The translations under genes and the position numbers were made by a program. Of a stretch of DNA of 12,326 bases, positions 163 to 12,307 are shown one piece after another. The stretch comes from a virus (lineage: Duplodnaviria; Heunggongvirae; Uroviricota; Caudoviricetes): IMG/VR virus record IMGVR_UViG_2693429700_000004; one strand, given 5' to 3'. Below the pieces are notes generated by a model, which was not told the DNA's origin, made no database searches, and saw only the letters and a list, made by a program, of their open reading frames with translations. Positions within the stretch are counted from its first letter, which is position 1. Every line of letters starts with the position of its first letter.

Positions 163-291
163 TCAGTTGTTAGCTTTTGCCGAACTGGAAAGCGCCTGTT
201 TAAACTCACTGAAGCTGAGAGCTTCTTCGCCTTCGGCAAGGCCTTCGAAGTATTCTTCGTAAGCCTTTTTCATGATTGTGTCGAAATCCAT
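163..291 (-). CDS. small acidic hypothetical protein (42 aa), leftward early operon; position matches the small ydaF/ydaG genes of Rac
   Basis: Minus-strand ORF MDFDTIMKKAYEEYFEGLAEGEEALSFSEFKQALSSSAKANN with GGTGAG RBS-like sequence upstream. Protein-like composition, unlike the overlapping + strand ORF 272-469. Not in the supplied ORF track (too short). Confidence 0.45.
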   Translation of the reverse strand: MDFDTIMKKAYEEYFEGLAEGEEALSFSEFKQALSSSAKANN

Positions 292-301
292 ATCACTCAC
301 C

Positions 302-448
302 TTAGTTTCTTTCCAACCAGCGACGTGCGCCAGCTTCGGTTTTAAACGATTTGCTTTTGGTATACGTCATGGCGGTGAATGTGCCGTCCTGATTGGGAAA
401 CACGCCACATACCAGAGATTCGTTGTTGCCAAGATCGATAGTATCCAT
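302..448 (-). CDS. small hypothetical protein (48 aa), leftward early operon
   Basis: Track ORF 302-511 begins with TTG; the internal ATG at 448 (MDTIDLGNNESLVCGVFPNQDGTFTAMTYTKSKSFKTEAGARRWLERN) is preceded by GAGG 5 nt upstream. Sits 10 nt upstream of the next small gene, consistent with an operon. Confidence 0.4.
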   Translation of the reverse strand: MDTIDLGNNESLVCGVFPNQDGTFTAMTYTKSKSFKTEAGARRWLERN

Positions 449-628
449 GTTGACCTCATTTCCCCTTAACGCCGGGTGGCGGAACGTTTTATCTACTGCG
501 CTTTGTATCAATCAACAACTGCCGTCATGTTCGTATGCCTCAGGCTGGCTACTTAGCCCTGTTCAGTGGCTGGATAACTCGAGGTATTGTCCAGCCGTTC
601 TCTGGTGGGGCGTTGTTTGGATATGCTT

Positions 629-657
629 ATTAAACACAATGCGTTTTCTTATGTCAA
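629..657 (-). promoter_or_regulatory. near-consensus sigma70 promoter (pL-like) driving the leftward small genes
   Basis: On the minus strand: TTGACA (complement of 652-657), 17-bp spacer, TTTAAT (complement of 629-634). Confidence 0.4.
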
Positions 658-698
658 CACGAAATGTGTTTTGTGGTGAGTGTCATATGATGATGGTA

Positions 699-723
699 CA
701 AAAAAGCCCGCTGATAGCGGGCT
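699..723 (-). terminator. intrinsic terminator downstream of the repressor gene
   Basis: Stem AGCCCGC (705-711) / GCGGGCT (717-723) with 5-nt loop; on the minus strand the hairpin is followed by a T6 run (complement of 699-704). Confidence 0.5.
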
Positions 724-753
724 GATTGGCATATTACTGTGATAGCAAGATCA

Positions 754-1173
754 TTACTCCGGTGGGGGATTATCTTTAAGCCTGCCTCTCAAATATTTTT
801 CTACATACTCATCGATTTCTTTTAGCCGGACTTCAAATAGCTCAATCATTCGTTGTTGTTCTGAGCCAGGTAGCTGGTTAAACAACTCAAGAAGTTTTCG
901 TTGGGATTCATTTAACCACAATTCAGAAGATTCCTGTTCTCCAAATAGGAGCTCAGGAGGAGATATGCCAAGTGCCTTTCCCAATACGACAGCGTCATGC
1001 ACTCCAACATTTCTGCTGCCCGCCTCATAGTTACCTATACGCGATTGCGTCCATCCGCAGATTTCAGCAAGTTTTCCTTGAGATAAACCAAGCTTCTGCC
1101 TGCGCTCTTTAAGACGCATTGCAATTTTGTCATTGAGCCTACTAGCGGCAATTTTTTCGTTTTCTTTTTCCAT
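754..1173 (-). CDS. racR: XRE/cI-type HTH prophage repressor, RacR-like
   Basis: 139-aa ORF with an HTH (LSQGKLAEICGWTQSRIGNYEAGSRNVG); AAGGA RBS 5 nt upstream of ATG. Transcribed divergently from a Cro-like gene, and synteny matches racR-ydaS-ydaT-ydaU-ydaV of Rac. Gene symbol is by synteny only. Confidence 0.75.
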   Translation of the reverse strand: MEKENEKIAASRLNDKIAMRLKERRQKLGLSQGKLAEICGWTQSRIGNYEAGSRNVGVHDAVVLGKALGISPPELLFGEQESSELWLNESQRKLLELFNQLPGSEQQRMIELFEVRLKEIDEYVEKYLRGRLKDNPPPE

Positions 1174-1184
1174 TGCATCCTTGT

Positions 1185-1245
1185 ATCACGAATCGTGATT
1201 TACATAAAACACAAAACAGCTTGACCATATAACACAAGGTGTGTT
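1185..1245. promoter_or_regulatory. divergent promoter/operator region of the immunity switch with two different palindromes
   Basis: Perfect 15-bp palindrome ATCACGAATCGTGAT (1185-1199) and inverted repeat AACACA-AGG-TGTGTT (1231-1245). TTGACC (1221-1226) is a -35 candidate for the rightward promoter. An 11-bp direct repeat AAAACAGCTTG occurs at 1213-1223 and 1293-1303. Confidence 0.45.
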
Positions 1246-1269
1246 TAAAATTGTCATCGGAGGTTTTCA

Positions 1270-1512
1270 ATGAACAAAATTTCAACATATCGAAAACAGC
1301 TTGGGCTGTCTCAAAGACAACTTGCTGTTCAGTTAGGGTGGATACAAAGCCGACTGGCAAATTACGAAGCAAATTTTCGTACCCCTGGACTAGAGGAGTG
1401 CAGAAAAATTGTTTCTACCCTTAATCGGCTTGGCGCTCATTGTGGACTTGACGATGTATTCCCCCCAGACGGTAAGCATAGCGAAAACAGCATAGGAGCG
1501 GTTGATTCATGA
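1270..1512 (+). CDS. ydaS: Cro-like HTH regulator, YdaS-like
   Basis: 80-aa ORF with an N-terminal HTH (LGLSQRQLAVQLGWIQSRLANYEAN); GGAGG RBS 6 nt upstream. First gene of the rightward operon, divergent from the repressor. Confidence 0.75.
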   Translation: MNKISTYRKQLGLSQRQLAVQLGWIQSRLANYEANFRTPGLEECRKIVSTLNRLGAHCGLDDVFPPDGKHSENSIGAVDS

Positions 1513-1931
1513 AAATCAGGCATGAGCACATCGAATCAGTGTTGTTAGCCCTGGCAGCCGAAAAAGGGCAGGCGTGGGTCGCTAACGCAATTACTGAAGA
1601 ATATCTGCGCCAGGGGGGCGGCGAATTGCCCCTTGTACCAGGCAAGGACTGGAACAATCAGCAGAATATCTATCACCGTTGGTTGAAAGGTGAAACGAAA
1701 GCGCAAAGGGAAAAAATTCAGAAACTGATCCCTGCGGTTCTGGCAATTCTTCCGCGCGAGCTGCGTCACCGACTCTGCATCTTCGATACCCTGGAACGCC
1801 GTGCATTACTGGCGGCGCAGGAAGCGTTGAGTACGGCAATTGATGCGCATGATGATGCAGTCCAGGCCGTTTACCGGAAAGCACATTTCAGCGGTGGTGG
1901 GTCGCCCGGCGATTCTGTCGTAGTGCATTGA
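1509..1931 (+). CDS. ydaT: YdaT-like protein (toxic when derepressed in Rac; proposed CII-like regulator)
   Basis: 140-aa ORF whose start overlaps the upstream stop (ATGA), indicating translational coupling. Size and position match ydaT of Rac. Function is taken from literature on the family, not from the sequence. Confidence 0.7.
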   Translation: MKIRHEHIESVLLALAAEKGQAWVANAITEEYLRQGGGELPLVPGKDWNNQQNIYHRWLKGETKAQREKIQKLIPAVLAILPRELRHRLCIFDTLERRALLAAQEALSTAIDAHDDAVQAVYRKAHFSGGGSPGDSVVVH

Positions 1932-1976: not shown

Positions 1977-2417
1977 GTAACGCTGCGAGCGTTACAAGGT
2001 GAAAACAAATGGCTTCAAACTGGATAAAGCTCGAGGTTATTACGCCGGATAAGCCGGAAATATTCAGGCTTGCTGAGATTCTGAATATTGATCCAGATGC
2101 CGCATTAGGGAAGGTTATTCGCTTCTGGGCATGGGCGGATCAACAAATGATAGACGGTAATGCAGATTGTAACGCTCGCGGCGTTACAAAAAGTGCAATA
2201 GATCGCATCACTTTTATGGCTGGTTTTGCTGATGCGTTAATTCAGGTTGGATGGCTGATCGAAAATGACGGTGGGCTTTCTCTACCTAACTTTGAACGTC
2301 ATAACGGGAAAAGCTCTAAAAAACGGGCGGTTACAAACGAGCGAGTAACAAAAATACGCGAACTGCAACGAAAAGGTAACGCTGCCAGCGTTACACAAAC
2401 GGATCAAAAAGCGTTAC
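1977..2417. repeat. palindromic iteron-like repeats (GTAACGCT-N3-AGCGTTAC) around and inside the initiator gene: candidate origin or autoregulatory sites
   Basis: Copies at 1977-1995 (8-bp arms), 2169-2187 (one mismatch) and 2376-2394 (8-bp arms); a related GTTAC-N10-GTAAC at 2330-2349; a half-site AGCGTTAC at 2410-2417. Confidence 0.5.
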
Positions 2418-3566: not shown

Positions 3567-4328
3567 ATGGAGACTGTTTTTGACGCACTGAAAGCAATGG
3601 GAAAAGCCACATCCATAGAACTTGCTGCGCGACTTGATATCAGTCGTGAAGAGGTACTGAACGAGCTGTGGGAACTGAAAAAAGCTGGTTTTGTTGATAA
3701 AACCGCGTACACCTGGCGCGTGGCTGAAAACAACGTTCAGCAGGAACAGTCAGCGCAGGCAGAACTGCCGGAAGAAACCACCACAGCAACAGTAGCGAAA
3801 ATCTCAGAGTGCGATTTAACCGCAACGATTGAACAACGCGGACCACAAACGGCTGATGAGCTGGCTACATTGTTTGATACCACATCACGCAAAGTGTCTT
3901 CAACGCTGGCAATGGCAATCAGCAAAGGTCGTCTGATTCGCGTAAATCAGGGCGGTAAATTTCGTTACTGCATACCGGGCGATAATTTACCAGCAGAGCC
4001 GAAAGCAGCATCGGTAGCGGAAACTGATGGTAAAGCCTTTCCTCAGCCTGCATGTGTTGCGTTACCAGTACAGGAAGCTGCAACACAGGAAGATATTAAA
4101 ACAGAAACGATGGCGGACATTGTGCAGTCGCTGCCATCGTTTACTGCAACGCGATCTGATGATTTGATTTTGCCATCGCTGCATTTGGCAAACCGCGAAC
4201 TGCGTCGGGCGAAAAATCATGTCCAGAAGTGGGAGCGTGTCTGCGCCGCGCTGCGTGAGTTGAACAAGCACAGGGATATTGTACGACAGATTACTGATTC
4301 TTCCCGCCATGTTGCATCGGAAAAGTGA
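3567..4328 (+). CDS. phage protein with two winged-helix-like segments (function unknown)
   Basis: Start chosen at ATG 3567 ([13 protein letters not shown]...) with GGAGA RBS; the track's upstream start at 3516 would overlap the DnaC-like gene. wHTH-like stretches: [30 protein letters not shown] and [29 protein letters not shown]. Confidence 0.55.
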
Positions 4329-4736: not shown

Positions 4737-5206
4737 GTGAGTCGGCTACCATTCTCGACATGTGCTGTGGCAGTCGCATGTTCTGGTTTGATAAGAATGA
4801 CGAACGGGCGATATTTAGCGATATCAGAAAAGAAGAGCACACATTGTGTGATGGACGACGCCTGATTATCAGTCCTGACCTGATAGCAGATTTTCGAGCA
4901 TTACCATTTGCAGACGCATCGTTTCCGGTTGTTGTATTCGACCCTCCGCATCTTGAGCGTGTTGGTGATAACGCCTGGATGGGAAAGAAATATGGACGGC
5001 TGAATAAAGATACCTGGCGAGATGATTTGCGGCAGGGATTTAAAGAAGCCTTTCGTGTGTTGTGCCCACGCGGCGTTCTGATTTTTAAATGGAATGAAAC
5101 GCAAATACCTGTTCGCCAGATATTGGTACTGACCGACAGAAAACCTGTTATCGGTCAACGAACAGGAAAAAACGATAAAACCCACTGGATTATTTTTATG
5201 AAATAG
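4733..5206 (+). CDS. small SAM-dependent methyltransferase, probable phage orphan DNA N6-adenine/N4-cytosine MTase
   Basis: Motif I-like ILDMCCGSR, then catalytic motif IV DPPH (VVVFDPPHL) about 65 residues later. Start is either GTG 4733 (GGAGGTGA RBS, overlaps upstream stop) or ATG 4763. About 150-158 aa with no partner restriction gene. Confidence 0.6.
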   Translation: MSESATILDMCCGSRMFWFDKNDERAIFSDIRKEEHTLCDGRRLIISPDLIADFRALPFADASFPVVVFDPPHLERVGDNAWMGKKYGRLNKDTWRDDLRQGFKEAFRVLCPRGVLIFKWNETQIPVRQILVLTDRKPVIGQRTGKNDKTHWIIFMK

Positions 5207-7656: not shown

Positions 7657-7789
7657 ATTCATTACGATATGGGAATTCCCATATCGGGTAAAAACGGTTT
7701 GCGGTAAAGCGAGAGTTAAGTAGAATTGCTGCGGGTGCTTGAGGCTATCTGCCTCGGGCATGCCACCGTAAGGCAGACAGAGAAAAGCC

Positions 7790-7890
7790 CCAGTTAACAT
7801 TACGCGTCCGGCAAGACGCTTAACATTAATCTGAGGCCATATCTATGCTCTACACACGTAGGTTAGCCTCTTACGGACCGAAAGGTCAAG
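7790..7890 (-). ncRNA. sok: predicted Sok-like antisense RNA region (coordinates approximate)
   Basis: Inferred from hok/mok architecture. Minus-strand TTGACC (complement of 7885-7890) is a possible -35; the mok leader contains hairpins and a direct repeat TTAACATTA. Boundaries are not resolved from sequence. Confidence 0.3.
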
Positions 7891-8051
7891 GAGAAGCAGG
7901 CTATGAAGCAGCAAAAGGCGATGTTAATCGCCCTGATCGTCATCTGTTTAACCGTCATAGTGACGGCACTGGTAACGAGGAAAGACCTCTGCGAGGTACG
8001 AATCCGAACCGGTCAGACGGAGGTCGCTGTCTTCGTAGACTACGAATCTGA
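7845..8051 (+). CDS. mok: Mok-like overlapping reading frame (modulation of killing) of the hok locus
   Basis: 68-aa ORF starting upstream of hok and overlapping it in another frame, the canonical hok/mok arrangement. Confidence 0.55.
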   Translation: MLYTRRLASYGPKGQGEAGYEAAKGDVNRPDRHLFNRHSDGTGNEERPLRGTNPNRSDGGRCLRRLRI

Positions 8052-8058
8052 GAAGTAA
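7903..8058 (+). CDS. hok: Hok/Gef-family type I toxin (HokD/RelF-like), 51 aa
   Basis: Translation MKQQKAMLIALIVICLTVIVTALVTRKDLCEVRIRTGQTEVAVFVDYESEK matches the Hok family as I recall it, nearly identical to HokD/RelF except the C-terminal tail. AAGGAGAAG RBS. Not in the ORF track. Confidence 0.85.
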   Translation: MKQQKAMLIALIVICLTVIVTALVTRKDLCEVRIRTGQTEVAVFVDYESEK

Positions 8059-10058: not shown

Positions 10059-10084
10059 CTCAATCTGTTATCCGGGGCTATATT
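10055..10084 (+). promoter_or_regulatory. pR'-like late promoter
   Basis: TTGACT (10055-10060), 18-bp spacer, TATATT (10079-10084); overlaps the stop codon of the Q-like gene. Confidence 0.45.
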
Positions 10085-10146
10085 CCTCACGCGCCAGCAA
10101 AATCTGGCGTCGGGATTAGGAACCCCGGATAGAGACCGCGACAGAC

Positions 10147-10170
10147 ACACGCCGCGAGCGTGTTTTTTAT
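10147..10170 (+). terminator. tR'-like intrinsic terminator about 80 nt downstream of the late promoter
   Basis: ACACGC-CGCGA-GCGTGT hairpin followed by TTTTTTATT. Confidence 0.55.
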
Positions 10171-10331
10171 TGTCGTATGCACGCGCACATCTGAATTATG
10201 GTGGGGCGTATGGGGGAGCTGAAAAGCTCGCCGGTTGGTTTCCCGGTAGTTCCTAACCCTGTACGTCTCACCACCCGATGATTAGGAACCTGACGGTGGT
10301 GATGGTTTAGAAACCACCAGAGGGCGTCATT

Positions 10332-10913
10332 ATGACAACTCAAATTTCTGTTGAAACTCTCTCCCCGATCACCCATAACCAGATTCCTGTTATTACCACC
10401 GAACTTTTGGCGCAGTTGTACGGTGCTGGAGTTAAGAACATTCAAAATAACTACGCCAGAAATGCTGAGCGCTTTATTGAAGGAAAGCATTTTTTCAAAG
10501 TGGCTGGCGATGCCCTGAAAAATTTGCGGGTAGCTTTAAACTACTCACAAAATTTGCAACCATCTTTAAGAGGGTTACAAATTTCCCCGAAAGCCCGCTC
10601 CCTCATCCTCTGGACAGAACGCGGAGCAGCCCGTCATGCCAAAATGCTGGAAACCGATCAGGCGTGGGATGTGTTCGAAAAGCTGGAAGACTGCTATTTC
10701 AGACAAAAGGATCCGTCAGCGCCAGTTTCATGCCAGAAAAGTTACGACACGCGAGTTCTCTGTTATCAGAGAGGCGGTGTCACTGTTTCCACAATTCAGT
10801 TACGGGATGATGATATTGTTATTTCCCTTGAGTCATGGCTGGAACTGGCGAGAGCCAATGGTTGGTTTGTTGTTCGCAGAGATAAACTGGTGGAAAGGTT
10901 GATGCAGCTTTAA
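10332..10913 (+). CDS. ORF6N-domain (antirepressor-like) protein
   Basis: 193-aa ORF with AGAGGG RBS; N-terminal segment TELLAQLYGAGVKNIQNNYARNAERFIEGKHFFKV resembles the ORF6N/antirepressor N-domain as I recall it. Confidence 0.55.
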   Translation: MTTQISVETLSPITHNQIPVITTELLAQLYGAGVKNIQNNYARNAERFIEGKHFFKVAGDALKNLRVALNYSQNLQPSLRGLQISPKARSLILWTERGAARHAKMLETDQAWDVFEKLEDCYFRQKDPSAPVSCQKSYDTRVLCYQRGGVTVSTIQLRDDDIVISLESWLELARANGWFVVRRDKLVERLMQL

Positions 10914-12231: not shown

Positions 12232-12307
12232 GGCCCTTTAGCTCAGTGGTGAGAGCGAGCGACTCATAATCGCCAGGTCGCTGGTTCAAATCCAGCAAGG
12301 GCCACCA
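12232..12307 (+). tRNA. tRNA with CAU anticodon, ileX/ileY-like (tRNA-Ile2, lysidine) and diverged from the host copies; tRNA-Met not formally excluded
   Basis: 76-nt cloverleaf: acceptor stem GGCCCTT/AAGGGCC, D-loop AGCTCAGTGG, anticodon loop CTCATAA, T-arm GGTTCAAATCC, encoded CCA end. Resembles E. coli ileX/ileY as I recall it, with compensatory stem changes. Confidence 0.85.

Follow-up and report, generated by a model that had tools for sequence, protein, structure and literature searches.

Three genes make up the locus studied here, which lies in a 12,326-nt stretch of viral DNA (hereafter, the window): a repressor gene, a Cro-like gene transcribed divergently from it, and ydaT, whose start codon overlaps the cro stop codon in an ATGA at 1509-1512. 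The initial annotation had described the same layout of a divergent cI-type repressor, a Cro-like gene and an overlapping 140-aa gene, and the open reading frames bore it out apart from small coordinate slips; the region between the repressor gene and cro measures 96 bp (1174-1269) instead of 97. In near-identical genomes the locus is placed next to ttcA, between intR/xisR/recT-type genes and O-like/DnaC-like replication genes. It is the immunity (lysis/lysogeny control) region of a lambdoid E. coli prophage, which in those genomes occupies the Rac site. DUF1391/ydfB genes lie downstream of the repressor gene, where a candidate PL-like promoter would drive them, and the window also contains an anti-repressor candidate, an ORF6N protein encoded at 10332-10913, with a C4-like RNA at 10194-10278. 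No LexA/SOS box was found in the window. The open reading frames at 272-469(+) and 393-725(+) were rejected as genes; they have no family matches and overlap the DUF1391 gene and the PL region. All features are collected in Table 1, including the OR2-like site, the two OL sites, the YdaT-box and the terminator, which the initial annotation had overlooked.

Table 1. Features of the immunity region, in window coordinates.
Feature	Position	Strand	Sequence	Description
PL-like promoter	629..657	-		Predicted; -35 TTGACA (657->652), 17-nt spacer, -10 TTTAAT (634->629)
OL proximal operator	633..647		AACACAATGCGTTTT	Putative; one good half-site, 1 mismatch; in PL spacer
OL distal operator	656..670		AACACGAAATGTGTT	Putative; perfect half-sites; overlaps PL -35
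Intrinsic terminator	705..723	-		After repressor gene; 8-bp stem with 6 GC pairs, then T-run
Repressor gene	754-1173	-		139 aa
Candidate PRM-like promoter	1180..1208	-		Predicted; -35 TTTATG (1208->1203), -10 TACAAG (1185->1180)
OR3-like operator	1185..1199		ATCACGAATCGTGAT	ATCACGA-A-TCGTGAT; in candidate PRM spacer; proposed Cro-preferred
OR2-like operator	1208..1222		AACACAAAACAGCTT	Left half conserved, right half degenerate; overlaps PR -35
11-bp repeat, copy 1	1213..1223	+	AAAACAGCTTG	Inside OR2 and PR -35; variable among relatives
PR-like promoter	1221..1249	+		Predicted; -35 TTGACC (1221-1226), 17-nt spacer, -10 TTTAAA (1244-1249)
OR1-like operator	1231..1245		AACACAAGGTGTGTT	AACACA-AGG-TGTGTT; in PR spacer; proposed repressor-preferred
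Cro-like gene	1270-1512	+		80 aa, HTH_3; SD GGAGG at 1259-1263
11-bp repeat, copy 2	1293..1303	+	AAAACAGCTTG	Inside cro, codons R-K-Q-L-G
YdaT-box	1502..1519		TTGATTCATGAAAATCAG	Overlaps ydaT start codon; 1 mismatch to TTGATT-N6-AATCAA
ydaT	1509-1931	+		140 aa, CII analogue

The N-terminus of the repressor is a cI/434/P22-type HTH_3 domain (Pfam, E 5e-13; 49.4 bits against a gathering cut-off of 23). The protein aligned with DicA over its full length (29% identity, E 2e-15) and scored 57.2 bits on the NCBIfam DicA model NF007257, under the curated cut-off of 101; judged by these matches it is a distant DicA homologue, and its C-terminus is a DicA-like helical domain. An AF2 model (pLDDT 85) predicted the HTH domain and a long helix (103-133), and the modelled HTH superposed on P22 c2, 434 and C.AhdI at about 1 A. 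When the C-terminal domain was used for a fold search we obtained loose overlaps with Stl and SinR only, and nothing convincing past the HTH. The 139-aa repressor has no Pfam match to Peptidase_S24, the domain of RecA-stimulated autocleavage, its C-terminus being helical. The RacR homology that the initial annotation had implied for it was not supported either, as BLASTP against K-12 RacR detected no similarity (best E = 2.0).

The Cro-like protein also carries an HTH_3 domain (Pfam, E 7e-10; 39.3 bits against a gathering cut-off of 23), and HTH_3/19/31 were the only Pfam families that it matched. Its identity to the protein annotated as Cro in Stx2 phages (VT2-Sakai) is 43.5%, and to phage L Cro 40%. 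Its recognition helix, GWIQSRLANYE, closely resembles the GWTQSRIGNYE of the repressor, and the protein is a paralogue of the repressor HTH. The YdaS homology implied earlier found no backing in either a BLASTP comparison with K-12 YdaS, which gave no alignment, or a Pfam search for the YdaS family (PF15943); similarity to DicC was likewise not found.

In the case of the third protein the match to Rac is close, with 95% identity to K-12 YdaT. It belongs to Pfam YdaT_toxin PF06254 (E 5e-11) and to PHROG 163 'CII-like transcriptional activator' (E 1.5e-36), matches the structures PDB 3c4r and 8bt1, and keeps the functionally tested residues H56 and R57, with W58 also present. K-12 YdaT has been experimentally shown to be a CII analogue, and its footprinted box, ATGATTCATGAAAATCAA, has the same place at the ydaT start (PMC11879457); in CP-933P the YdaT operator (OM site) lies at the end of the Cro-like gene (PMC9986795). 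The box of the window is invariant in 63 of 65 window-type loci. The earlier view of a RacR/YdaS/YdaT-type module thus stands for YdaT and its box at the start codon and fails for the repressor and the Cro-like protein; as far as sequence comparison goes, YdaT is the only Rac-like member of the three.

Next, we considered the operators. The initial annotation had pointed out two non-identical palindromes, at 1185-1199 and 1231-1245, and both were located as claimed; two palindromes (arms of at least 6, loop of at most 3) fell within 96 bp in 0.6% of shuffles. Both fit the pattern xNCAC-N5-GTGNx and appear to be members of one operator family. The pattern was matched 6 times where 1.4 matches would be expected. 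The two regulatory regions contain 4 of these matches; those at 3884-3898 and 4838-4852 were taken as chance, given the expectation. The three OR sites are spaced 23 bp, the centre of OR2 lying 23 bp from each neighbour, and an extended left half, CATAwAACACAA, recurs at 1203, 1226 and 628. A literature search with the operator sequences gave no matching paper in the searchable library. Among relatives (47 distinct sequences) none of the 40 half-site positions varied, compared with 59 of 156 other non-coding positions (Fisher p = 8e-8). The half-sites of OR3 showed no variation, those of OR1 are invariant around a variable centre (1237-1239), and OR2 has an invariant left half and a variable right half. 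On the PL side, the AACAC half of the proximal site is invariant in 47 relatives and its centre varies; the distal site has invariant half-sites and a variable centre (661-665). The Salmonella group with 84% identity retains the operator sites, OL distal included, and OR2-equivalent sites were found in 9 related modules.

None of the three promoters that we propose was called by a strict sigma-70 scan, and the matches of that scan at 726-754 and 1251-1280 were rejected as promoters because they are at odds with the gene layout. The PL-like and PR-like promoters align in register, with the same -35, operator and -10 layout and an identical operator register relative to the two boxes; 10 modules share a TTGAC(N)-17-(T/A)(T/C)TAA(T/A) arrangement whose spacer contains OR1. 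Homology to pPE4 picks up again just downstream of the PL-like promoter. Compared with the consensus, PRM (TTTATG/TACAAG) is a weak assignment. Its +1 would probably be the A of the repressor ATG, giving a leaderless mRNA such as those shown for PaaR2 (PMC8630535) and for the PY54 repressor, cI (PMC4488713). A TAnAAn hexamer lies at -12 to -7 from the repressor ATG in the window, L070, Chris1 and mEp213 (counted in mEp213 from the third codon, an ATG) and at -13 to -8 in pPE4, and is absent from pAEv1818. An AAGGA Shine-Dalgarno-like motif upstream of the repressor ATG would speak for a leadered mRNA. With divergent repressor and Cro genes, a three-site spacer and a second operator pair at 633-670, and with its predicted promoters, the locus has a lambdoid-type layout.

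The comparison of 15 related modules, behind which there are perhaps 3-5 independent lineages, revealed a single residue of the recognition helix that changes together with half-site base 2: Gly goes with A, Ala with T and Ser with C. The left half of OR3 reads ATCAC in 8/8 modules with an Ala Cro and ACCAC in 7/7 with a Ser Cro, and OR1 and the PL-side sites read xACAC where the repressor has Gly and xTCAC where it has Ala. The site adjoining the repressor gene (OR3) follows Cro, and the other sites follow the repressor. A natural swap illustrates this: pPE4 and 10 E. coli genomes have the Cro protein of the window unchanged and a repressor with 62-64% identity, and in these loci OR1, OR2 and OL are all CTCAC-type and OR3 remains ATCAC. 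The Salmonella modules L070 and L112 repeat the pairing of window and pPE4, and an ATCAC...GTGA(T/A) OR3 is kept in both pPE4 and L112, where Cro is shared and the repressor and the other operators differ. Exceptions are the OR1 left halves of mEp213 and L092, and Yersinia L113, which has the same helix in both proteins and no CAC-N5-GTG sites. We also tried, as a predictor of base 2, the residue that we take to be equivalent to 434 Gln28 from our own alignment to the 434 R1-69 sequence, and rejected it; Gln pairs with A, T and C (counted by eye). The discriminating contact to base 2, A versus T, may be residue 5 of helix 3 (Gly47 in the repressor, Ala30 in Cro).

From its observed anatomy, conservation, homologies and covariation we read the locus as a lambda-type bistable immunity switch (rough probability 0.75), for which binding, promoters and induction route are predicted as follows. 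During lysogeny the repressor would bind AACAC-N5-GTGTT at OR1 and OR2 and shut off the rightward promoter of cro, ydaT and the replication genes, and at the two OL sites it would silence the leftward promoter. In the lytic state the Cro paralogue would prefer ATCAC-N5-GTGAT (OR3), in the spacer of the repressor's promoter, and stop repressor synthesis. For establishment, YdaT, translated across the overlap with the cro stop, would bind the YdaT-box at its own start codon and, by analogy with K-12 YdaT, activate a reverse promoter, which would raise repressor synthesis like lambda CII at PRE. Induction by SOS/RecA is unlikely because the repressor has no S24 autocleavage domain; presumably an anti-repressor acts instead of RecA cleavage.

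A different reading makes the locus a toxin-repressor addiction unit, in which the repressor mainly restrains toxic cro-like and ydaT genes and cells die once the repressor or the prophage is lost. K-12 requires racR and is killed by expression of ydaS/ydaT (PMC5700373, PMC5700377), its YdaT leads to filamentation and death through rcsA (PMC11879457) and is 95% identical to the protein of the window, and among 162 complete E. coli genomes with this cro we saw none lacking an adjacent repressor. Nevertheless, this reading seems improbable to us. The toxin and antitoxin of type II systems are co-transcribed, whereas here the repressor is divergent from cro-ydaT, and nothing points to neutralisation of one protein by another. 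Putative operators of the repressor are also present at a second promoter (633-670), and the YdaT family consists of DNA-binding CII analogues that raise repressor synthesis (PMC11879457, PMC9986795). Moreover, the YdaT of CP-933P is non-toxic and its authors argue that YdaS/YdaT are no TA pair (PMC8630535); YdaS and YdaT act as Cro and CII analogues, and the TA reading is disputed (PMC5917428, PMC8630535, PMC11879457). Trios of repressor, Cro and a YdaT-family protein are found in prophages across Enterobacterales and in isolated phages, which also argues against addiction. The initial annotation had further drawn attention to an exact 11-bp direct repeat, and one copy does lie in the promoter and one in the first gene. 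A function for this repeat, such as a further binding site that would connect the promoter with the coding part of cro, we regard as very improbable. In its favour, only 2% of shuffles have an intergenic 11-mer that recurs elsewhere in 754-1931, outside the spacer, and position 1484 has a third copy, though a partial one (GAAAACAGC). An exact 11-mer direct pair of any kind arises in 754-1931 by chance in 14% of shuffles. Of the 47 distinct relatives, 11 have lost the identity without the other copy changing to match, a variability on which we rejected the repeat as a conserved element; pPE4-type loci have copy 2 and lack copy 1. OR2 and the -35 account for copy 1 and the coding sequence for copy 2, which is probably coincidental.

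Within the lambda-type switch, the two palindromes had been taken as evidence of two distinct DNA-binding specificities. That the repressor and the Cro-like protein differ in preference is probable in light of the covariation across 15 modules; unrelated specificities are not, since the helices are paralogous (QSRIGNYE and QSRLANYE) and the CAC-N5-GTG core is shared. We tentatively propose, at a little short of even odds, that the two operator specificities are partly orthogonal and set by helix position 5, with OR3 dedicated to Cro. If so, the repressor and the four other operators could diversify into new immunity types (AACAC, CTCAC/TTCAC, GACAC) with the same Cro and OR3 retained, which would yield heteroimmune prophages with a common lytic regulator. 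A strict partition of sites is unlikely because both lambda proteins bind all sites. In PY54, Cro binds OR3 only and peripheral base pairs set specificity (PMC4488713), a mechanistic precedent only. Alternatively, repressor and Cro might read all five sites alike, base 2 (A or T) setting the affinity for both and the covariation being phylogenetic hitch-hiking. The nearly identical helices and the CAC-N5-GTG common to all sites fit such a single specificity, as does the textbook behaviour of lambda, 434 and P22, e.g. the weak OR3 of lambda, and the modules are related, so that the covariation counts are not independent. We nonetheless find it rather unlikely: OR3 is still ATCAC in pPE4 and L112, whose repressor and remaining operators are all different, it becomes ACCAC where the Cro class changes and the repressor helix does not (Chris1, L091, L117, L118), and it sits within the swapped, diverged cassette and outside the conserved flank.

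Finally, we compared the locus with known systems. It shares with K-12 Rac the chromosomal site (ttcA/intR, in near-identical genomes), the order of repressor, divergent Cro analogue and YdaT followed by replication genes, the 95% identical YdaT and the YdaT-box over the ydaT ATG. However, the operators differ, its repressor and Cro-like protein lack detectable similarity to RacR and YdaS, and K-12 has a 22-bp gap before ydaT where cro and ydaT overlap in the window; because its operators differ from those of Rac, the locus represents a different immunity type. Like Qin dicA-dicC, it has a short repressor without a peptidase domain and with full-length DicA homology that takes in the helical LFxxLPxxEQ domain at its C-terminus; a small Cro-like gene diverges from the repressor gene, and DUF1391/ydfB genes lie downstream. 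Unlike Qin, its Cro-like protein is unrelated to DicC, its repressor falls under the DicA cut-off, and the DicA-DicC spacer carries TTAGT-type palindromes rather than CAC-N5-GTG. CP-933P paaR2/ydaS/ydaT of O157:H7 also combines a non-cleavable CI analogue with analogues of Cro and CII, a spacer about 97 bp long, a leaderless repressor mRNA and an extra PL-like promoter (PMC8630535, PMC9986795), the last two being predicted for the window; its authors put the identity of its YdaT to Rac YdaT at only about 31%, against 95% here, and the window has no paaA2-parE2 toxin-antitoxin genes after the repressor. With lambda, 434 and P22 it has in common a tripartite OR with sites two helical turns apart, OL sites, and, given the predicted promoters, an OR1 within the spacer of PR and an OR3 overlying the repressor's promoter; the repressor and Cro HTHs are paralogous, like those of 434 and P22, and the HTH matches the P22 c2 and 434 structures. 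It differs from these phages in the missing S24 domain, in having two recognisable OL sites and in a CII analogue that is YdaT/POU-like and, by analogy, an inverted-repeat binder. In mEp213 the HTH (58% identity) and Cro (55%) are homologous and the three-site CAC-N5-GTG layout is the same, whereas its cI has a LexA-like (S24) C-terminal domain and its CII is lambda-type.

The switch is of an ordinary phage kind. The locus bears the label 'toxin YdaT' and is read as Rac-like or TA-like, an annotation habit that our analysis corrects: its immunity type is a distinct one, which about 3% of complete E. coli genomes carry, O157, O145, O103 and O111 strains among them. Should the code of one residue and one base hold, the family would be a compact natural system for the evolution of repressor-operator specificity, would show a route to heteroimmunity with Cro unchanged, and would help to predict cross-immunity and cross-induction between co-resident prophages of pathogenic E. 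coli and Salmonella.

The three reading frames of the module lie where the initial annotation had placed them, with the repressor gene divergent from a Cro-like gene that is joined to ydaT by an ATGA overlap, and the spacer first given as 97 bp is present but measures 96 bp. Positions 600-2000 share 99.9% identity with the chromosomes of many E. coli strains. In one near-identical E. coli genome the prophage adjoins ttcA and carries intR, xisR, ralR and recT on its left, and an O-like initiator, the DnaC-like ydaV, DUF1627 and DUF977 genes and a Q-like gene on its right. From these flanking phage genes and the ttcA neighbour we infer that the locus is a prophage immunity region, which in near-identical E. 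coli genomes occupies the Rac site. The cro gene was present in 162 of 5426 complete E. coli genomes, and the whole repressor-operator-cro unit in 153.

Features of the locus and of other parts of the window
Feature	Position	Strand	Detail
Repressor ORF	754-1173	-	139 aa
Intergenic spacer	1174-1269		96 bp
Cro-like ORF	1270-1512	+	80 aa
YdaT ORF	1509-1931	+	140 aa
Terminator	723-705	-	between repressor gene and leftward promoter
OR3	1185-1199		perfect palindrome ATCACGA-A-TCGTGAT
OR2	1208-1222		AACACAAAACAGCTT, half-degenerate; exactly midway between the two palindromes
OR1	1231-1245		perfect palindrome AACACA-AGG-TGTGTT
OL sites	633-647, 656-670		3' of repressor gene
Rightward promoter layout			AAAACAC-AAAAC-AGCTT-GACC-ATAT-AACAC-AAGGT-GTGTT-TAAAAT
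Leftward promoter layout			AAAACAC-ATTTC-GTGTT-GACA-TAAG-AAAAC-GCATT-GTGTT-TAATAA
11-mer AAAACAGCTTG	1213-1223, 1293-1303	+	exact copies
YdaT-box	1502-1519		TTGATTCATGAAAATCAG, overlaps ydaT start codon
YdaT-box-like palindrome	3933-3950		CTGATTCGCGTAAATCAG, within DUF1627 gene
19-bp palindromes	1977-1995, 2169-2187, 2376-2394		GTAACGC-N5-GCGTTAC
O-like initiator gene	2009-2791
IS3-family element	1-~140	-	transposase start (MTKNTRFSPEVRQRAIRMV...) and terminal repeat (TGAACCGCCCCGG)
ydfB	163-291
hok/sok	7733-8058		sok RNA 7733-7905, Hok-size ORF 7903-8058
C4 RNA region	10078-10278
ORF6N-domain gene	10332-10913
tRNA gene	12232-12307		CAT anticodon, window right end

The module had been assigned to the RacR/YdaS/YdaT type, and this holds for YdaT, which is 95% identical to K-12 YdaT, matches Pfam YdaT_toxin and belongs to PHROG's 'CII-like transcriptional activator' family. 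It does not hold for the other two proteins: sequence comparison detected no similarity of the repressor to RacR, or of the Cro-like protein to either YdaS or DicC. Instead, the repressor is distantly related to DicA over its full length (29% identity, E 2e-15) and scores below the NCBI DicA cut-off. Its N-terminal HTH shares 49-58% identity with the cI of mEp213, mEpX1 and VT1-Sakai; it lacks an S24 peptidase domain. In its AlphaFold model (pLDDT 85), helices 89-99 and 103-133 follow the HTH domain, and matches to solved structures (P22 c2, 434 and C.AhdI, ~1 A) are limited to the HTH part. The Cro-like protein is 40-44% identical to the annotated Cro of phage L and of Stx2 phages such as VT2-Sakai, and the two recognition helices are nearly alike (repressor GWTQSRIGNYE, Cro GWIQSRLANYE). 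The repressor family comprises 155 protein clusters matching at E <= 1e-10; the matches listed (120 of the 155 clusters) come from enterobacterial genera and all have unspecific names of the kind 'helix-turn-helix domain-containing protein', and we regard the family as a previously unnamed DicA-like family. An adjoining small HTH_3 gene and then a YdaT-family gene accompany the repressor in six of seven relatives looked up; in the seventh, from Yersinia, the small HTH_3 gene is present and no YdaT-family match was obtained. Separately, in seven loci (L087 and L096-L101, from Klebsiella, Kluyvera, Pluralibacter and others) the C-terminal LFxQLPExEQxRMID..RLKEIDxYVEKYLRGR domain of the repressor sits on an unrelated HTH (..GISKADMARIAGVTPQAVNGWFK..), with a different Cro as partner and TTTAC/GTAAA-type palindromes, which indicates shuffling between DNA-binding and tail domains.

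Both palindromes of the spacer were recovered as first described. Such a pair arose within 96 bp in 0.6% of shuffles, and the observation of genes and palindromes is real and strongly non-random. One 15-bp pattern, AWCAC-N5-GTGWT, covers both; allowing one mismatch, it matches six times in the window against 1.4 expected, and four of the six are OR3, OR1 and the two OL sites. The OR centres (1192, 1215 and 1238) follow each other in 23-bp steps, as do the OL centres (640 and 663). The rightward and leftward promoter regions align in register when each is read on its own strand, and both predicted promoters conform to TTGAC(C/A)-N17-TTTAA(A/T), with one operator in the spacer and another over the -35. 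This three-site layout is repeated in nine other related modules. Among 66 window-type sequences (the window and 65 IMG/VR loci, with 47 distinct versions of 540-1330), the eight well-formed half-sites are invariant at all 40 positions, whereas variation occurs at 59 of 156 other non-coding positions (Fisher p = 8e-8); the variation falls in the 5-bp site centres and the inter-site spacers. Variable centres with fixed half-sites are typical of operators for dimeric HTH proteins. In the Salmonella lineage (84% identity) the half-sites are likewise unchanged and the centres different.

The 11-bp direct repeat does exist, with one exact copy in the promoter and one in cro, but it is most likely a coincidence: the first copy lies inside OR2 and the -35 and the second is coding sequence, identity is lost in 11 of the 47 distinct relatives with no compensating change, and pPE4-type loci have the second copy and lack the first. 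Exact 11-mer direct pairs number 48 over the window as a whole, versus 26 in shuffles.

The YdaT-box of the window is the counterpart of the K-12 box ATGATTCATGAAAATCAA, which has been DNase-footprinted (PMC11879457), and the CP-933P OM site TTGATT-N6-AATCAA corresponds to it (PMC9986795). It is unchanged in 63 of the 65 window-type loci. In K-12, racR expression rises when YdaT occupies its box and activates a reverse promoter, a role that has been likened to lambda CII at PRE (PMC11879457). Elsewhere in the window, the perfect palindrome in the DUF1627 gene resembles the box with two mismatches; it may be either a chance match, about one being expected, or another target of YdaT.

The repressor-cro-ydaT module had also been read as a toxin-antitoxin-like addiction unit. 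K-12 racR is indeed essential, and expression of YdaS/YdaT is toxic (PMC5700373, PMC5700377), but the toxin-antitoxin label originated from a prediction tool, CP-933P YdaT is non-toxic, and Jobling (PMC5917428) and Jurenas et al. (PMC8630535) argued that the proteins are Cro/CII analogues. Death on derepression is expected of such a prophage and makes an addiction function unnecessary. Divergent genes, a further set of operators at the leftward promoter and phage surroundings are all consistent with ordinary prophage immunity. We consider an addiction unit unlikely; the sequence evidence points to a lambda-type immunity switch with a DicA-like repressor, a paralogous Cro and the well-studied YdaT.

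OR3 is directly followed, on the strand of the repressor gene, by a TAnAAn hexamer (TACAAG in the window). The hexamer ends 6 nt 5' of the ATG in the window, Salmonella L070, Chris1 and mEp213 (in mEp213 counted from its third codon) and 7 nt in pPE4; in the spacer comparison of related modules it was absent from pAEv1818. Its position near the ATG suggests that the repressor mRNA is leaderless, in which case OR3 would lie in the promoter spacer and OR2 would abut a weak -35. The mRNAs of the PaaR2 repressor (PMC8630535) and of PY54 cI (PMC4488713) are leaderless.

No LexA box was found in the window. Rfam identified IsrK and a C4 antisense RNA with its a1/b1 targets, and directly 3' of them lies the ORF6N-domain gene (PHROG 2379 'anti-repressor', E 1e-90), which makes it reasonable that a P1 immI-like anti-repressor route could inactivate the non-cleavable repressor. 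Other features were also observed. Three perfect 19-bp palindromes (0.03 expected; at intervals of 192 and 207 bp), the first in the region from ydaT to the O-like initiator gene and the others within that gene, may be initiator binding sites or an origin. At the left end, an insertion sequence recognized by reading the sequence, which we take to be IS3/IS629, truncates the leftward operon just 3' of ydfB. The window also holds a hok/sok toxin-antisense locus and a tRNA gene; the near-identical prophage L001 has a four-tRNA cluster at the corresponding end, its first tRNA annotated as tRNA-Ile.

The two palindromes had been taken to reflect two distinct binding specificities. In phage pPE4 and 10 E. 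coli genomes, Cro is identical to that of the window and the repressor only 62-64% identical. Homology between the window and pPE4 ends at ~625 and restarts at the cro ATG, and thus the exchanged cassette comprises OL, the repressor and OR, without cro. pPE4 has CTCAC-type sites at OR1, at OR2 and in both positions of OL, and its repressor-adjacent site is still ATCAC...GTGA; Salmonella L070 and L112 form a matching pair of arrangements with Salmonella's own Cro allele. The record of pPE4 (PP818812, 'Actinobacillus phage vB_Apl-pPE4') has Rac-like early genes (exonuclease VIII, Kil) in the 8.7 kb examined, a repressor-cro segment 98-99.7% identical to E. coli chromosomes and a cro-ydaT segment 95.5% identical to the window, and its Actinobacillus host label looks doubtful.

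Across 15 modules with recognizable sites, which are phylogenetically non-independent, recognition-helix position 5 (..SR-x-[G/A/S]-NYE) tracks the second half-site base in both paralogues. The left half of OR3 is ATCAC with a Cro Ala (8/8) and ACCAC with a Cro Ser (7/7), also among repressors sharing the helix W[T/A]QSR[I/V]GNYE. At OR1 and the PL-side sites, a repressor Gly goes with xACAC (both OR1 halves carry A in 8 of 10; the left half carries T in mEp213 and L092) and an Ala with xTCAC (5/5); the exceptions include a Yersinia module without CAC-N5-GTG sites. In the window, repressor Gly47 and Cro Ala30 fit the four AACAC sites and the single ATCAC site, which supports the idea of two specificities in a refined form: the covariation favours related proteins that share a CAC-N5-GTG core and differ in preference at one base, not unrelated specificities. 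PY54 Cro binds OR3 as its sole site, with specificity set by peripheral base pairs (PMC4488713). The apparent one-residue/one-base code, the one feature of the locus worth an experiment, would dedicate OR3 to Cro and let a single Cro serve two heteroimmune repressors.
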